Below are positions 1 through 6,407 of a stretch of DNA of 6,407 nucleotides, in pieces. How positions within the stretch are numbered: the first letter of the stretch is position 1; each line of letters opens with the position of its first letter. Under the pieces are notes generated by a model that was not told the DNA's origin, searched no databases, and saw only the letters and a list, made by a program, of their open reading frames with translations. Both the position numbers and the translations under genes were made by a program. The stretch comes from Inovirus M13: sequence record NC_003287.2. One strand, written 5' to 3'.

Positions 1-831
1 AACGCTACTACTATTAGTAGAATTGATGCCACCTTTTCAGCTCGCGCCCCAAATGAAAATATAGCTAAACAGGTTATTGACCATTTGCGAAATGTATCTA
101 ATGGTCAAACTAAATCTACTCGTTCGCAGAATTGGGAATCAACTGTTACATGGAATGAAACTTCCAGACACCGTACTTTAGTTGCATATTTAAAACATGT
201 TGAGCTACAGCACCAGATTCAGCAATTAAGCTCTAAGCCATCCGCAAAAATGACCTCTTATCAAAAGGAGCAATTAAAGGTACTCTCTAATCCTGACCTG
301 TTGGAGTTTGCTTCCGGTCTGGTTCGCTTTGAAGCTCGAATTAAAACGCGATATTTGAAGTCTTTCGGGCTTCCTCTTAATCTTTTTGATGCAATCCGCT
401 TTGCTTCTGACTATAATAGTCAGGGTAAAGACCTGATTTTTGATTTATGGTCATTCTCGTTTTCTGAACTGTTTAAAGCATTTGAGGGGGATTCAATGAA
501 TATTTATGACGATTCCGCAGTATTGGACGCTATCCAGTCTAAACATTTTACTATTACCCCCTCTGGCAAAACTTCTTTTGCAAAAGCCTCTCGCTATTTT
601 GGTTTTTATCGTCGTCTGGTAAACGAGGGTTATGATAGTGTTGCTCTTACTATGCCTCGTAATTCCTTTTGGCGTTATGTATCTGCATTAGTTGAATGTG
701 GTATTCCTAAATCTCAACTGATGAATCTTTCTACCTGTAATAATGTTGTTCCGTTAGTTCGTTTTATTAACGTAGATTTTTCTTCCCAACGTCCTGACTG
801 GTATAATGAGCCAGTTCTTAAAATCGCATAA
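1..831 (+). CDS. gII: Gene II, C-terminal part (pII, rolling-circle replication initiator; full protein 410 aa when circularised)
   Basis: Frame 1 is open from base 1 to TAA ending at 831 (NATTISRIDATFSARAPNENIAKQVIDHLRNVSNG...PVLKIA). The ORF-track call 85..831 uses a TTG alternative start and is a truncation artefact. Confidence 0.95.
   Translation, partial: NATTISRIDATFSARAPNENIAKQVIDHLRNVSNGQTKSTRSQNWESTVTWNETSRHRTLVAYLKHVELQHQIQQLSSKPSAKMTSYQKEQLKVLSNPDLLEFASGLVRFEARIKTRYLKSFGLPLNLFDAIRFASDYNSQGKDLIFDLWSFSFSELFKAFEGDSMNIYDDSAVLDAIQSKHFTITPSGKTSFAKASRYFGFYRRLVNEGYDSVALTMPRNSFWRYVSALVECGIPKSQLMNLSTCNNVVPLVRFINVDFSSQRPDWYNEPVLKIA
412..417 (+). promoter_or_regulatory. Candidate -10 hexamer (TATAAT) of the gene X promoter inside gene II
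   Basis: Perfect TATAAT at 412..417, about 80 nt upstream of the gene X start; possible -35 TTGATG at 387..392 with a long 19-nt spacer. The position fits an internal promoter known in Ff phages, but the exact hexamers are inferred. Confidence 0.35.
496..831 (+). CDS. gX: Gene X (pX, 111 aa), translated in frame from an internal start of gene II; needed for ssDNA accumulation
   Basis: Internal ATG at 496 in the gene II frame, preceded by a strong Shine-Dalgarno GAGGGGG at 484..490; product MNIYDDSAVLDAIQSK... is identical to the pII C-terminus. Known nested gene in Ff phages. Confidence 0.85.
   Translation: MNIYDDSAVLDAIQSKHFTITPSGKTSFAKASRYFGFYRRLVNEGYDSVALTMPRNSFWRYVSALVECGIPKSQLMNLSTCNNVVPLVRFINVDFSSQRPDWYNEPVLKIA
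802..807 (+). promoter_or_regulatory. Candidate -10 hexamer (TATAAT) of a gene V promoter at the 3' end of gene II
   Basis: Perfect TATAAT at 802..807, about 36 nt upstream of the gene V ATG; no clear -35 seen. Inferred. Confidence 0.3.
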
Positions 832-842
832 GGTAATTCACA

Positions 843-1106
843 ATGATTAAAGTTGAAATTAAACCATCTCAAGCCCAATTTACTACTCGTTCTGGTGTTT
901 CTCGTCAGGGCAAGCCTTATTCACTGAATGAGCAGCTTTGTTACGTTGATTTGGGTAATGAATATCCGGTTCTTGTCAAGATTACTCTTGATGAAGGTCA
1001 GCCAGCCTATGCGCCTGGTCTGTACACCGTTCATCTGTCCTCTTTCAAAGTTGGTCAGTTCGGTTCCCTTATGATTGACCGTCTGCGCCTCGTTCCGGCT
1101 AAGTAA
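843..1106 (+). CDS. gV: Gene V (pV, 87 aa), ssDNA-binding protein that coats progeny plus strands and represses gene II translation
   Basis: ORF 843..1106 gives MIKVEIKPSQAQFTTRSGVSRQGKPYSLNEQLCYVDLGNEYPVLVKITLDEGQPAYAPGLYTVHLSSFKVGQFGSLMIDRLRLVPAK, recognised as Ff gene 5 protein; SD AAGG at 830..833. Confidence 0.97.
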   Translation: MIKVEIKPSQAQFTTRSGVSRQGKPYSLNEQLCYVDLGNEYPVLVKITLDEGQPAYAPGLYTVHLSSFKVGQFGSLMIDRLRLVPAK

Positions 1107-1107
1107 C

Positions 1108-1209
1108 ATGGAGCAGGTCGCGGATTTCGACACAATTTATCAGGCGATGATACAAATCTCCGTTGTACTTTGTTTCGCGCTTGGTATAATCGCTGGGGGT
1201 CAAAGATGA
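1108..1209 (+). CDS. gVII: Gene VII (pVII, 33 aa), minor coat protein at the virion tip that emerges first
   Basis: ATG at 1108, one nt after the gene V stop, gives MEQVADFDTIYQAMIQISVVLCFALGIIAGGQR with TGA at 1207..1209. Too short for the ORF track. Canonical position between V and IX. Confidence 0.85.
   Translation: MEQVADFDTIYQAMIQISVVLCFALGIIAGGQR
1163..1190 (+). promoter_or_regulatory. Strong sigma70-type promoter upstream of genes IX/VIII (-35 TTGTAC, 16-nt spacer, -10 TATAAT)
   Basis: TTGTAC at 1163..1168 and perfect TATAAT at 1185..1190, inside gene VII and about 110 nt upstream of gene VIII. Consistent with the known strong promoter driving major coat protein expression. Confidence 0.6.
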
Positions 1210-1304
1210 GTGTTTTAGTGTATTCTTTCGCCTCTTTCGTTTTAGGTTGGTGCCTTCGTAGTGGCATTACGTATTTTACCCGTTTAATGGAAACTTCCTC
1301 ATGA
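1206..1304 (+). CDS. gIX: Gene IX (pIX, 32 aa), minor coat protein at the pVII end of the virion
   Basis: ATG at 1206 overlaps the gene VII stop (ATGA); product MSVLVYSFASFVLGWCLRSGITYFTRLMETSS, stop TGA at 1302..1304 overlapping the gene VIII ATG. Too short for the ORF track. Confidence 0.85.
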   Translation: MSVLVYSFASFVLGWCLRSGITYFTRLMETSS

Positions 1305-1522
1305 AAAAGTCTTTAGTCCTCAAAGCCTCTGTAGCCGTTGCTACCCTCGTTCCGATGCTGTCTTTCGCTGCTGAGGGTGACGATCCCGCAAAAGCGGCCT
1401 TTAACTCCCTGCAAGCCTCAGCGACCGAATATATCGGTTATGCGTGGGCGATGGTTGTTGTCATTGTCGGCGCAACTATCGGTATCAAGCTGTTTAAGAA
1501 ATTCACCTCGAAAGCAAGCTGA
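1301..1522 (+). CDS. gVIII: Gene VIII (pVIII major coat protein precursor, 73 aa: 23-aa signal peptide + 50-aa mature protein)
   Basis: MKKSLVLKASVAVATLVPMLSFA / AEGDDPAKAAFNSLQASATEYIGYAWAMVVVIVGATIGIKLFKKFTSKAS: signal peptide, acidic N-terminus, hydrophobic helix and basic C-terminus are the classic major coat protein. Asn at mature position 12 (AAC 1403..1405). Confidence 0.97.
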   Translation: MKKSLVLKASVAVATLVPMLSFAAEGDDPAKAAFNSLQASATEYIGYAWAMVVVIVGATIGIKLFKKFTSKAS

Positions 1523-1537
1523 TAAACCGATACAATT

Positions 1538-1565
1538 AAAGGCTCCTTTTGGAGCCTTTTTTTTT
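1538..1565 (+). terminator. Rho-independent terminator after gene VIII
   Basis: GC stem GGCTCC (1541..1546) / GGAGCC (1551..1556) with a TTTT loop, followed by a run of 9 T (1557..1565); located directly after the gene VIII stop. Confidence 0.85.
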
Positions 1566-1578
1566 GGAGATTTTCAAC

Positions 1579-2853
1579 ATGAAAAAATTATTATTCGCAA
1601 TTCCTTTAGTTGTTCCTTTCTATTCTCACTCCGCTGAAACTGTTGAAAGTTGTTTAGCAAAACCCCATACAGAAAATTCATTTACTAACGTCTGGAAAGA
1701 CGACAAAACTTTAGATCGTTACGCTAACTATGAGGGTTGTCTGTGGAATGCTACAGGCGTTGTAGTTTGTACTGGTGACGAAACTCAGTGTTACGGTACA
1801 TGGGTTCCTATTGGGCTTGCTATCCCTGAAAATGAGGGTGGTGGCTCTGAGGGTGGCGGTTCTGAGGGTGGCGGTTCTGAGGGTGGCGGTACTAAACCTC
1901 CTGAGTACGGTGATACACCTATTCCGGGCTATACTTATATCAACCCTCTCGACGGCACTTATCCGCCTGGTACTGAGCAAAACCCCGCTAATCCTAATCC
2001 TTCTCTTGAGGAGTCTCAGCCTCTTAATACTTTCATGTTTCAGAATAATAGGTTCCGAAATAGGCAGGGGGCATTAACTGTTTATACGGGCACTGTTACT
2101 CAAGGCACTGACCCCGTTAAAACTTATTACCAGTACACTCCTGTATCATCAAAAGCCATGTATGACGCTTACTGGAACGGTAAATTCAGAGACTGCGCTT
2201 TCCATTCTGGCTTTAATGAGGATCCATTCGTTTGTGAATATCAAGGCCAATCGTCTGACCTGCCTCAACCTCCTGTCAATGCTGGCGGCGGCTCTGGTGG
2301 TGGTTCTGGTGGCGGCTCTGAGGGTGGTGGCTCTGAGGGTGGCGGTTCTGAGGGTGGCGGCTCTGAGGGAGGCGGTTCCGGTGGTGGCTCTGGTTCCGGT
2401 GATTTTGATTATGAAAAGATGGCAAACGCTAATAAGGGGGCTATGACCGAAAATGCCGATGAAAACGCGCTACAGTCTGACGCTAAAGGCAAACTTGATT
2501 CTGTCGCTACTGATTACGGTGCTGCTATCGATGGTTTCATTGGTGACGTTTCCGGCCTTGCTAATGGTAATGGTGCTACTGGTGATTTTGCTGGCTCTAA
2601 TTCCCAAATGGCTCAAGTCGGTGACGGTGATAATTCACCTTTAATGAATAATTTCCGTCAATATTTACCTTCCCTCCCTCAATCGGTTGAATGTCGCCCT
2701 TTTGTCTTTAGCGCTGGTAAACCATATGAATTTTCTATTGATTGTGACAAAATAAACTTATTCCGTGGTGTCTTTGCGTTTCTTTTATATGTTGCCACCT
2801 TTATGTATGTATTTTCTACGTTTGCTAACATACTGCGTAATAAGGAGTCTTAA
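1579..2853 (+). CDS. gIII: Gene III (pIII, 424 aa with 18-aa signal peptide), minor coat/adsorption protein with N1 and N2 domains, Gly-rich linkers and C-terminal anchor
   Basis: ATG at 1579 with SD GGAG at 1566..1569; product [85 protein letters not shown](EGGGS)n... The ORF-track start at 1549 is a TTG extension into the terminator and is rejected. Confidence 0.95.
1834..1893 (+). repeat. Four tandem 15-bp coding repeats (GAGGGTGGYGGYWCT) encoding (EGGGS)3-EGGGT, Gly-rich linker 1 of pIII between N1 and N2
   Basis: Direct reading: gagggtggtggctct gagggtggcggttct gagggtggcggttct gagggtggcggtact. Confidence 0.9.
2284..2400 (+). repeat. Tandem 12-15-bp coding repeats encoding GGGS/EGGGS units, Gly-rich linker 2 of pIII between N2 and the C-terminal domain
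   Basis: Direct reading: protein [39 protein letters not shown]; DNA units ggcggcggctct / ggtggtggttct / gagggtggcggttct and variants. Confidence 0.9.
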
Positions 2854-2855
2854 TC

Positions 2856-3194
2856 ATGCCAGTTCTTTTGGGTATTCCGTTATTATTGCGTTTCCTCGGT
2901 TTCCTTCTGGTAACTTTGTTCGGCTATCTGCTTACTTTTCTTAAAAAGGGCTTCGGTAAGATAGCTATTGCTATTTCATTGTTTCTTGCTCTTATTATTG
3001 GGCTTAACTCAATTCTTGTGGGTTATCTCTCTGATATTAGCGCTCAATTACCCTCTGACTTTGTTCAGGGTGTTCAGTTAATTCTCCCGTCTAATGCGCT
3101 TCCCTGTTTTTATGTTATTCTCTCTGTAAAGGCTGCTATTTTCATTTTTGACGTTAAACAAAAAATCGTTTCTTATTTGGATTGGGATAAATAA
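2856..3194 (+). CDS. gVI: Gene VI (pVI, 112 aa), hydrophobic minor coat protein at the pIII end of the virion
   Basis: ATG at 2856 with SD AGGAG at 2843..2847; product MPVLLGIPLLLRFLGFLLVTLFGYLLTFLKKGFGKIAIAISLFLALIIGLNSILVGYLSDISAQLPSDF..., start placed 2 nt after the gene III stop. Confidence 0.95.
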   Translation: MPVLLGIPLLLRFLGFLLVTLFGYLLTFLKKGFGKIAIAISLFLALIIGLNSILVGYLSDISAQLPSDFVQGVQLILPSNALPCFYVILSVKAAIFIFDVKQKIVSYLDWDK

Positions 3195-3195
3195 T

Positions 3196-4242
3196 ATGGC
3201 TGTTTATTTTGTAACTGGCAAATTAGGCTCTGGAAAGACGCTCGTTAGCGTTGGTAAGATTCAGGATAAAATTGTAGCTGGGTGCAAAATAGCAACTAAT
3301 CTTGATTTAAGGCTTCAAAACCTCCCGCAAGTCGGGAGGTTCGCTAAAACGCCTCGCGTTCTTAGAATACCGGATAAGCCTTCTATATCTGATTTGCTTG
3401 CTATTGGGCGCGGTAATGATTCCTACGATGAAAATAAAAACGGCTTGCTTGTTCTCGATGAGTGCGGTACTTGGTTTAATACCCGTTCTTGGAATGATAA
3501 GGAAAGACAGCCGATTATTGATTGGTTTCTACATGCTCGTAAATTAGGATGGGATATTATTTTTCTTGTTCAGGACTTATCTATTGTTGATAAACAGGCG
3601 CGTTCTGCATTAGCTGAACATGTTGTTTATTGTCGTCGTCTGGACAGAATTACTTTACCTTTTGTCGGTACTTTATATTCTCTTATTACTGGCTCGAAAA
3701 TGCCTCTGCCTAAATTACATGTTGGCGTTGTTAAATATGGCGATTCTCAATTAAGCCCTACTGTTGAGCGTTGGCTTTATACTGGTAAGAATTTGTATAA
3801 CGCATATGATACTAAACAGGCTTTTTCTAGTAATTATGATTCCGGTGTTTATTCTTATTTAACGCCTTATTTATCACACGGTCGGTATTTCAAACCATTA
3901 AATTTAGGTCAGAAGATGAAATTAACTAAAATATATTTGAAAAAGTTTTCTCGCGTTCTTTGTCTTGCGATTGGATTTGCATCAGCATTTACATATAGTT
4001 ATATAACCCAACCTAAGCCGGAGGTTAAAAAGGTAGTCTCTCAGACCTATGATTTTGATAAATTCACTATTGACTCTTCTCAGCGTCTTAATCTAAGCTA
4101 TCGCTATGTTTTCAAGGATTCTAAGGGAAAATTAATTAATAGCGACGATTTACAGAAGCAAGGTTATTCACTCACATATATTGATTTATGTACTGTTTCC
4201 ATTAAAAAAGGTAATTCAAATGAAATTGTTAAATGTAATTAA
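3196..4242 (+). CDS. gI: Gene I (pI, 348 aa), inner-membrane assembly/export ATPase with N-terminal Walker A motif
   Basis: ATG at 3196 immediately after the gene VI stop (TAA 3192..3194); product MAVYFVTGKLGSGKTLVSVGKIQDK... with Walker A GKLGSGKT (about nt 3217..3240) and a membrane-spanning segment near LCLAIGFASAF. The ORF-track start at 3148 is a TTG extension overlapping gene VI. Confidence 0.93.
   Translation: MAVYFVTGKLGSGKTLVSVGKIQDKIVAGCKIATNLDLRLQNLPQVGRFAKTPRVLRIPDKPSISDLLAIGRGNDSYDENKNGLLVLDECGTWFNTRSWNDKERQPIIDWFLHARKLGWDIIFLVQDLSIVDKQARSALAEHVVYCRRLDRITLPFVGTLYSLITGSKMPLPKLHVGVVKYGDSQLSPTVERWLYTGKNLYNAYDTKQAFSSNYDSGVYSYLTPYLSHGRYFKPLNLGQKMKLTKIYLKKFSRVLCLAIGFASAFTYSYITQPKPEVKKVVSQTYDFDKFTIDSSQRLNLSYRYVFKDSKGKLINSDDLQKQGYSLTYIDLCTVSIKKGNSNEIVKCN
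3916..4242 (+). CDS. gXI: Gene XI (pXI, 108 aa), in-frame internal restart within gene I (from pI Met241); assembly protein partner of pI
   Basis: ATG at 3916 in the gene I frame (720 nt = 240 codons after the gene I start); product MKLTKIYLKKFSRVLCLAIGFASAF... Known nested gene in Ff phages; the internal initiation cannot be proven from sequence alone. Confidence 0.75.
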   Translation: MKLTKIYLKKFSRVLCLAIGFASAFTYSYITQPKPEVKKVVSQTYDFDKFTIDSSQRLNLSYRYVFKDSKGKLINSDDLQKQGYSLTYIDLCTVSIKKGNSNEIVKCN

Positions 4243-5500
4243 TTTTGTTTTCTTGATGTTTGTTTCATCATCTTCTTTTGCTCAGGTAATTGAAATGAAT
4301 AATTCGCCTCTGCGCGATTTTGTAACTTGGTATTCAAAGCAATCAGGCGAATCCGTTATTGTTTCTCCCGATGTAAAAGGTACTGTTACTGTATATTCAT
4401 CTGACGTTAAACCTGAAAATCTACGCAATTTCTTTATTTCTGTTTTACGTGCTAATAATTTTGATATGGTTGGTTCAATTCCTTCCATAATTCAGAAGTA
4501 TAATCCAAACAATCAGGATTATATTGATGAATTGCCATCATCTGATAATCAGGAATATGATGATAATTCCGCTCCTTCTGGTGGTTTCTTTGTTCCGCAA
4601 AATGATAATGTTACTCAAACTTTTAAAATTAATAACGTTCGGGCAAAGGATTTAATACGAGTTGTCGAATTGTTTGTAAAGTCTAATACTTCTAAATCCT
4701 CAAATGTATTATCTATTGACGGCTCTAATCTATTAGTTGTTAGTGCACCTAAAGATATTTTAGATAACCTTCCTCAATTCCTTTCTACTGTTGATTTGCC
4801 AACTGACCAGATATTGATTGAGGGTTTGATATTTGAGGTTCAGCAAGGTGATGCTTTAGATTTTTCATTTGCTGCTGGCTCTCAGCGTGGCACTGTTGCA
4901 GGCGGTGTTAATACTGACCGCCTCACCTCTGTTTTATCTTCTGCTGGTGGTTCGTTCGGTATTTTTAATGGCGATGTTTTAGGGCTATCAGTTCGCGCAT
5001 TAAAGACTAATAGCCATTCAAAAATATTGTCTGTGCCACGTATTCTTACGCTTTCAGGTCAGAAGGGTTCTATCTCTGTTGGCCAGAATGTCCCTTTTAT
5101 TACTGGTCGTGTGACTGGTGAATCTGCCAATGTAAATAATCCATTTCAGACGATTGAGCGTCAAAATGTAGGTATTTCCATGAGCGTTTTTCCTGTTGCA
5201 ATGGCTGGCGGTAATATTGTTCTGGATATTACCAGCAAGGCCGATAGTTTGAGTTCTTCTACTCAGGCAAGTGATGTTATTACTAATCAAAGAAGTATTG
5301 CTACAACGGTTAATTTGCGTGATGGACAGACTCTTTTACTCGGTGGCCTCACTGATTATAAAAACACTTCTCAAGATTCTGGCGTACCGTTCCTGTCTAA
5401 AATCCCTTTAATCGGCCTCCTGTTTAGCTCCCGCTCTGATTCCAACGAGGAAAGCACGTTATACGTGCTCGTCAAAGCAACCATAGTACGCGCCCTGTAG
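4220..5500 (+). CDS. gIV: Gene IV (pIV, 426 aa precursor with about 21-aa signal peptide), outer-membrane secretin channel for phage extrusion
   Basis: ATG at 4220 with SD AAGG at 4208..4211; product MKLLNVINFVFLMFVSSSSFA/QVIEMNNSPLRDFVTWYSKQSG...; C-terminal half (…VPFITGR…GQTLLLGGL…VPFLSKIPLIGLLF…) looks like the secretin domain shared with GspD/PilQ. Overlaps the gene I end by 23 nt. The ORF-track start at 4181 is a TTG extension. Confidence 0.95.
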   Translation: MKLLNVINFVFLMFVSSSSFAQVIEMNNSPLRDFVTWYSKQSGESVIVSPDVKGTVTVYSSDVKPENLRNFFISVLRANNFDMVGSIPSIIQKYNPNNQDYIDELPSSDNQEYDDNSAPSGGFFVPQNDNVTQTFKINNVRAKDLIRVVELFVKSNTSKSSNVLSIDGSNLLVVSAPKDILDNLPQFLSTVDLPTDQILIEGLIFEVQQGDALDFSFAAGSQRGTVAGGVNTDRLTSVLSSAGGSFGIFNGDVLGLSVRALKTNSHSKILSVPRILTLSGQKGSISVGQNVPFITGRVTGESANVNNPFQTIERQNVGISMSVFPVAMAGGNIVLDITSKADSLSSSTQASDVITNQRSIATTVNLRDGQTLLLGGLTDYKNTSQDSGVPFLSKIPLIGLLFSSRSDSNEESTLYVLVKATIVRAL

Positions 5501-5577
5501 CGGCGCATTAAGCGCGGCGGGTGTGGTGGTTACGCGCAGCGTGACCGCTACACTTGCCAGCGCCCTAGCGCCCGCTC
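5499..5577 (+). other. Packaging (morphogenetic) signal hairpin, the first element of the intergenic region
   Basis: GC-rich imperfect inverted repeat immediately after the gene IV stop (TAG 5498..5500): gtagcggcgcattaagcgcggcggg...ccagcgccctagcgcccgctcc. Position and sequence match the Ff packaging signal also present in f1-ori phagemids. Boundaries approximate. Confidence 0.7.
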
Positions 5578-5589
5578 CTTTCGCTTTCT

Positions 5590-5760
5590 TCCCTTCCTTT
5601 CTCGCCACGTTCGCCGGCTTTCCCCGTCAAGCTCTAAATCGGGGGCTCCCTTTAGGGTTCCGATTTAGTGCTTTACGGCACCTCGACCCCAAAAAACTTG
5701 ATTTGGGTGATGGTTCACGTAGTGGGCCATCGCCCTGATAGACGGTTTTTCGCCCTTTGA
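5590..5760 (+). promoter_or_regulatory. Minus-strand (complementary-strand) replication origin, hairpins B/C; host RNA polymerase primer-synthesis site
   Basis: Structured GC-rich non-coding segment between the packaging signal and the plus-strand origin (…ggctttccccgtcaagctctaaatcgggggctccctttagggttccgatttagtgctttacggcacctcgacccc…), recognised as Ff/f1 ori sequence. Boundaries approximate. Confidence 0.6.
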
Positions 5761-5765
5761 CGTTG

Positions 5766-5910
5766 GAGTCCACGTTCTTTAATAGTGGACTCTTGTTCCA
5801 AACTGGAACAACACTCAACCCTATCTCGGGCTATTCTTTTGATTTATAAGGGATTTTGCCGATTTCGGCCTATTGGTTAAAAAATGAGCTGATTTAACAA
5901 AAATTTAACG
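5766..5910 (+). promoter_or_regulatory. Plus-strand (viral-strand) rolling-circle origin: pII nick site between 5780 and 5781, core hairpins and downstream AT-rich enhancer domain
   Basis: Inverted repeat gagtccac…gtggactc around the sequence ttcttt^aatagtggactcttgttccaaactggaacaaca, with a second small hairpin tgttccaaactggaaca. This matches the canonical Ff pII recognition/nick sequence, followed by an AT-rich region. Boundaries of the enhancer domain approximate. Confidence 0.8.
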
Positions 5911-5933
5911 CGAATTTTAACAAAATATTAACG

Positions 5934-5962
5934 TTTACAATTTAAATATTTGCTTATACAAT
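5934..5962 (+). promoter_or_regulatory. Gene II promoter (-35 TTTACA, 17-nt spacer, -10 TACAAT)
   Basis: TTTACA at 5934..5939, 17-nt spacer, TACAAT at 5957..5962, about 45 nt upstream of the gene II ATG at 6006; near-consensus sigma70 promoter. Confidence 0.65.
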
Positions 5963-6005
5963 CTTCCTGTTTTTGGGGCTTTTCTGATTATCAACCGGGG
6001 TACAT

Positions 6006-6407
6006 ATGATTGACATGCTAGTTTTACGATTACCGTTCATCGATTCTCTTGTTTGCTCCAGACTCTCAGGCAATGACCTGATAGCCTTTGTAGACCTCTC
6101 AAAAATAGCTACCCTCTCCGGCATGAATTTATCAGCTAGAACGGTTGAATATCATATTGATGGTGATTTGACTGTCTCCGGCCTTTCTCACCCTTTTGAA
6201 TCTTTACCTACACATTACTCAGGCATTGCATTTAAAATATATGAGGGTTCTAAAAATTTTTATCCTTGCGTTGAAATAAAGGCTTCTCCCGCAAAAGTAT
6301 TACAGGGTCATAATGTTTTTGGTACAACCGATTTAGCTTTATGCTCTGAGGCTTTATTGCTTAATTTTGCTAATTCTTTGCCTTGCCTGTATGATTTATT
6401 GGATGTT
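6006..6407 (+). CDS. gII: Gene II, N-terminal part (pII replication initiator nickase); partial in linear view, continues in frame at 1..831 across the circular junction
   Basis: ATG at 6006 gives MIDMLVLRLPFIDSLVCSRLSGNDLIAFVDLSKIATLSG..., the recognised pII N-terminus. It runs to the window end with no stop; 402 nt = 134 codons, so it joins frame 1 at position 1. A -35/-10 promoter lies just upstream. Confidence 0.95.
   Translation, partial: MIDMLVLRLPFIDSLVCSRLSGNDLIAFVDLSKIATLSGMNLSARTVEYHIDGDLTVSGLSHPFESLPTHYSGIAFKIYEGSKNFYPCVEIKASPAKVLQGHNVFGTTDLALCSEALLLNFANSLPCLYDLLDV

Follow-up and report, generated by a model that had tools for sequence, protein, structure and literature searches.

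In the filamentous phages M13 Rutgers (JX412914), f1 (J02448 and V00606) and fd (J02451), gene III opens with GTG, and the annotation of V00606 reads 'valine start'. GUG and AUG are both decoded by the initiator tRNA (fMet), and the pIII protein is unchanged by the choice between them. Only a few copies of pIII are needed per virion, and gene III lies behind a strong terminator. A weak initiator fits this low demand for pIII. The window analysed here (i.e. the whole stretch of M13 DNA, 6407 nt) starts gene III with ATG, in contrast to these phages. Its terminator, its GGAG motif and the spacing between the elements are the same as in M13 Rutgers, f1 and fd, and 12 of 15 Ff records show no other difference within the 120 nt around the gene III start.

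The preliminary description of this DNA had placed an ATG start of gene III at positions 1579–1581. This is confirmed: positions 1571–1590 read ttttcaacATGaaaaaatta, and the ATG is in frame with an open reading frame of 424 codons ending at 2853. The product of this reading frame is pIII (Pfam PF05357, Phage_Coat_A; E = 6.1e-66, 218.5 bits, in two stretches), and the records of M13, f1 and fd place gene III at the same coordinates, 1579–2853. The list of open reading frames and a terminator scan gave the gene order VIII, terminator, III, VI, with the following features around the gene III start:

1301..1522, plus strand: gene VIII (major coat protein), upstream of gene III; an ATG-initiated reading frame of 73 amino acids
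1538..1565, plus strand: central rho-independent terminator; stem-loop at 1538–1559, T-run to 1565
1566..1569, plus strand: putative gene III Shine-Dalgarno motif GGAG, read from the sequence, 9 nt before the start codon
1579..1581, plus strand: gene III initiator, ATG (A at 1579); GTG in every other Ff sequence examined
1579..1632, plus strand: pIII signal peptide, 18 codons, from the translation; cleavage site from established knowledge of pIII
1579..2853, plus strand: gene III coding sequence, pIII attachment and minor coat protein, 424 amino acids, from PF05357 and the coordinates in the reference records

The coordinates of gene VIII match its annotation in JX412914, J02448, V00606 and J02451. 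The central terminator sits at the end of gene VIII and consists of the stem-loop AAAGGCTCC-TTTT-GGAGCCTTT, for which the terminator scan reported nine pairs (five of them G-C), a loop of four and a T tail; the hairpin carries a run of nine T. In M13mp-type vector contigs, this U-tract (window 1557–1565), upstream of the gene III Shine-Dalgarno motif, has eight T rather than nine. The GGAG at 1566–1569 is unchanged in 15 of 15 Ff records, and its position, together with established knowledge of Ff phages, suggests that it acts as the ribosome binding site of gene III. Mature pIII presumably begins with AETVES at position 1633.

The window aligns end to end with Ff phage genomes. It starts with AACGCTACTA and ends with GGATGTT, as quoted for NC_003287.2 and V00604.2; other Ff genomes have the same ends, so that the ends say little about which record it is. 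It differs by 15 nt from M13 Rutgers (JX412914), by 52 nt from f1 J02448, by 61 nt from f1 V00606 and by 194 nt from fd J02451. The 52 differences from f1 J02448 are accompanied by five amino acid differences, while f1 and fd differ from each other by 186 nt. Hill and Petersen reportedly gave, in 1982, 52 nt and five amino acids for M13 and f1, and 186 nt for f1 and fd.

The proteins encoded by the window point to the same record. Its pIV is an exact match to CAA23865.1/NP_510894.1/P03665 (G4P_BPM13) and has no identical counterpart among the other Ff records compared, its pII exactly matches CAA23856.1/NP_510885.1, and its pI exactly matches CAA23864.1. These identifiers belong to the classical M13 records V00604 and NC_003287, i.e. 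the 1980 determination. Because the proteins are identical to deposited ones and the difference counts agree with those reportedly given in 1982, we take the window to be the classical 1980 M13 reference sequence V00604/NC_003287. Its M13 lineage is also visible in bases 1–2395, where 10 of the 12 sites at which it differs from f1 are common to M13 Rutgers and an mp vector. An exact look-up of the window pIII (1579–2850) in a collection of 15 billion proteins gave no match; the pIII of f1 was absent from this collection as well, so that the absence of the window pIII says nothing about the window.

Some markers separate individual M13 lines. M13 Rutgers has 6125T (gene II codon 40, pII M40I), as do M13mp-type vector contigs, while G is found there in the window and in L049 and L051, two wild-type contigs. 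M13 Rutgers also has a private 2095T in codon 173 of gene III, which changes pIII to V173F.

For a single base such as 1579, comparison across records is the relevant test, and chance is not a suitable one. GTG was found at the gene III start in 15 of 15 Ff genome records, and the window alone had ATG. The record set consisted of M13 Rutgers, eight f1 records, fd, Copypasta and five 'Ff' isolates; its most divergent member, FfLavender (90.5% identity), has GTG as well. Some 20 more contigs have the same codon, M13mp-type vectors among them. A GTG start is thus typical of Ff gene III, although it is no defining trait of the family. Contigs with an M13-type pVIII all had GTG, both in M13mp-type lacZ-alpha vectors and in wild-type M13. 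The preliminary description had ascribed GTG to commonly used M13-derived sequences, and this holds for all 15 records and all further contigs, mp-type vectors included. It had also named ATG in all Ff references as the observation that would speak against it, and the 15 references, each with GTG, clearly show the reverse.

A scan of large collections with a pattern that was ambiguous for A and G at the initiator returned G alleles only; they came from a single IMG/VR contig, a single metagenome contig and two contigs that contaminate bacterial assemblies. The closest wild-type relatives of the window were two M13 contigs from independent samples, L034 and L035, which span window positions 1–2254 and 1–1881, respectively. 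Over these spans, position 1579 was their sole difference from the window. The change from G to A at this base removes an ACGT (MaeII) site and introduces a CATG (NlaIII) site. In phage, plasmid, E. coli, IMG/VR, metagenome and species-genome collections, we found no independent DNA with the ATG form, except for a synthetic part described below. The plasmid collection gave no match to the region of the gene III start. A literature search on a GTG or ATG initiator of gene III found nothing relevant, and its sole match concerned the PelB leader.

M13 and M13mp DNA also occurs as a contaminant in unrelated assemblies, i.e. in those of Streptomyces sp. NPDC051776 and SAR11 PRT-SC02 and in a TARA metagenome scaffold. 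In the SAR11 contig, lacZ-alpha sequence adjoins the M13 origin region.

The initiator is one of 12 alleles of the window that were missing from all other M13-lineage DNA examined (M13 Rutgers, L049 and L051 as wild-type contigs, and the contigs of mp vectors), save that 11 of them occur in the contigs L027 and L028. At all 12 sites, M13 Rutgers, L049, L051 and, where they cover the site, the mp-vector contigs have the f1-like base. The record-specific alleles are:

1579A: gene III initiator
2710A: gene III codon 378, pIII G378S; G in M13 Rutgers and in those wild-type and mp-vector contigs that cover the site
4453T, 4471T, 4477A, 4479T, 4480T, 4489A, 4747A, 4786T, 5374A and 5443C: gene IV

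Outside the initiator, only three of the 11 alleles are non-synonymous (2710, 4479 and 4480), and they alter two residues, since 4479T and 4480T together give pIV N87I. Eight of the 10 gene IV alleles are the base of fd. A recombinant block derived from fd was considered as the source of these alleles and rejected: about 80 sites in gene IV distinguish fd from real M13, the record agrees with fd at only eight of them, and the fd-like alleles are interspersed with M13-specific ones. This scattering implies that no single recombination event explains the gene IV alleles.

Records of f1 provide a comparison for the reliability of early sequences. The f1 records V00606 and J02448 differ at 18 sites, whereas the modern f1 sequence AB334720 differs at 20 sites from V00606 and at two from J02448. 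Such deviations among f1 records of the early 1980s favour legacy sequencing or transcription discrepancies as the source of the alleles in the M13 record. T1737 first seemed private to the record as well, but it is common to the real contigs L034 and L035. Hence, not every odd base of the record is an error.

Other than in the window, the ATG form was found only in the terminator part 'M13 Central' and in a copy of this part in an engineered E. coli. The 85-nt BIOFAB part is identical to window positions 1511–1595, ATG included. Its sequence is printed in PMC6723963, which credits it to Cambray et al. (2013). In the part design of Cambray et al. (2013; PMC3643576), each natural terminator keeps 30 nt of context at either end, and the boundaries of 'M13 Central' fit a terminator core with a 30-nt flank on each side (1511–1595). 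Here the ATG is passenger sequence in a synthetic terminator, not a working gene III start as in the phage.

The E. coli copy lies in isolate FELIX_MS508 (NZ_CP148116.1, 3851031–3851114). It is an 84-nt copy of 'M13 Central' with one mismatch in the stem, C to G at window position 1544. The copy is directly downstream of thyA, and this thyA is inserted between caiF and caiE. The combination of thyA with the terminator copy is an engineering signature in an E. coli assembly presented as a 'complete genome'. The part and its E. coli copy do not count as phage isolates in their own right; both point to an ATG that stood in a public M13 sequence before designers copied it. As a design from natural M13 sequence, the part also lends indirect support to A at 1579 in V00604/NC_003287.

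An exact match to the record came from two Logan contigs, whose runs are consecutive. L027 (SRR32389466) corresponds to window positions 2331–6406 and L028 (SRR32389465) to positions 2331–6331, both with 100% identity. They carry 11 of the 12 record-specific alleles, and their span stops short of position 1579. L027 ends 1 nt before the linear end of the record, whereas natural M13 Logan contigs from this assembler begin at 2331, pass through the origin and end at about 1862. L027 and L028 may thus have been made from the database sequence. The window pIV was present on two contigs, as compared with 508 index blocks that contain the M13-type pVIII; judged by these counts, the genotype of the record is very rare.

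How A1579 arose can be weighed against this evidence. We lean, with some reserve, towards a legacy base-call or transcription discrepancy of the 1980 record; real phage would carry GTG, and the A would later have passed into DNA that was designed on the record, the BIOFAB 'M13 Central' part for example. A real mutation or polymorphism private to the M13 stock sequenced in 1980, i.e. a viable GUG-to-AUG up-variant making somewhat more pIII, is possible but less probable. Over 4 kb, L027 and L028 show no mismatch to the record and include its 11 other specific alleles, and if they came from a natural stock, the record would be accurate there and A1579 would probably be real too. The presence of T1737 in independent wild-type contigs and the mostly synonymous character of the record-specific changes, which resembles selection-filtered variation more than random misreads, also argue for a real variant. 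The natural ATG start of gene III in phage If1 further suggests that an ATG-initiated pIII fits the phage lifestyle. However, L034 and L035 have G at 1579, the collections searched hold the ATG form only in the synthetic part, and the scarcity of the record genotype speaks against a stock of this kind. Moreover, the end of L027 so close to the linear end of the record makes it possible that the two contigs were record-built. On balance, we infer an artefact of the record rather than a mutation of the stock.

Neither of two further readings seems probable. The contrast between A in the window, as M13, and G in f1 and fd had led the preliminary description to regard 1579 as a strain-typing nucleotide, which would divide M13, f1 and fd or separate wild-type phage from cloning vectors. 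M13 Rutgers, L049 and L051 (wild-type M13) and every M13mp-type vector contig carry true M13 markers yet have G at this position, as do f1 and fd, so that a strain-typing role is almost certainly wrong. Judging from the sequences compared, A1579 more likely marks one database record (V00604/NC_003287), together with DNA designed from it, than a phage strain. A deliberate change, such as an engineered increase of pIII, or an alteration of the window after deposition is also highly improbable. An engineer would indeed pick ATG, and the ATG form does occur in synthetic constructs. Nevertheless, the remaining window is wild type and contains neither an insert nor cloning scars, the 1980 record has exactly the same pIV, pII and pI, and the 52 differences from f1, which include 1579, match the figure reportedly given in 1982. 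The construction of 'M13 Central' as natural sequence with 30 nt of context likewise implies that the ATG was already in its source record.

The consequences for translation would be modest. In the RBS Calculator, the start-codon terms correspond to roughly 1.5- to 2-fold. A structural effect of the G-to-A change on the mRNA was considered and rejected as minor, since the predicted ensemble energy of local folding shifts by only 0.2–0.6 kcal/mol. With folding barely altered, any effect would come from the identity of the codon. In E. coli reporters, GUG and UUG initiate at 10–100% of the level of AUG (bioRxiv 10.1101/063800). AUG in place of GUG should therefore modestly raise the initiation of pIII, by roughly 1.5-fold to several-fold, in DNA that truly carries A1579. 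Hence, the rise in pIII initiation suggested by the preliminary description stands in principle, and its size, like any effect on pIII level and fitness, can be stated as an expectation.

A weak GUG start of gene III in the phage is textbook material, and the present comparison adds no new biology and has small biological weight. Its relevance lies in the use of the record. Besides the gene III initiator, 11 sites, among them those of pIII G378S and pIV N87I, appear to set the RefSeq-type M13 record apart from the DNA of real M13. Constructs, primers and models derived from NC_003287 or V00604 would inherit an ATG-initiated gene III that is absent from real phage and vectors. Conversely, ATG at 1579 may serve as a provenance mark: DNA that carries it was probably designed from the record rather than amplified from phage, as in the BIOFAB part and the engineered E. 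coli. If A1579 were a true natural variant, it would represent a spontaneous GUG-to-AUG up-mutation of pIII in a setting where Ff and IKe-like phages otherwise keep a weak GUG, and it would offer a ready isogenic test of why pIII initiation stays weak.

More distant filamentous phages place the window in a wider context. GTG opens gene III of IKe (position 2082), I2-2 (4975) and PEar1 (2086), despite their large sequence divergence from the window. In these three phages, gene VIII is followed by a terminator hairpin with a T-run and then by gene III, as in the window. In If1 (NC_001954), the hairpin between gene VIII and gene III is GC-rich and lacks a clear T-run. The pIII leader opens with M/V-K-K/R in IKe, I2-2, PEar1 and If1. 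Across the filamentous phages of F-, N- and I-pili compared here, the weak GUG start of gene III is thus widely, though not universally, conserved. Its conservation in Ff and IKe-like phages hints at selection, but If1 shows that ATG is tolerated. The gene III start of If1 (position 776) is an ATG like that of the window but has a different upstream region, whereas the ATG of the window stands in a context that is otherwise identical to that of the Ff phages.
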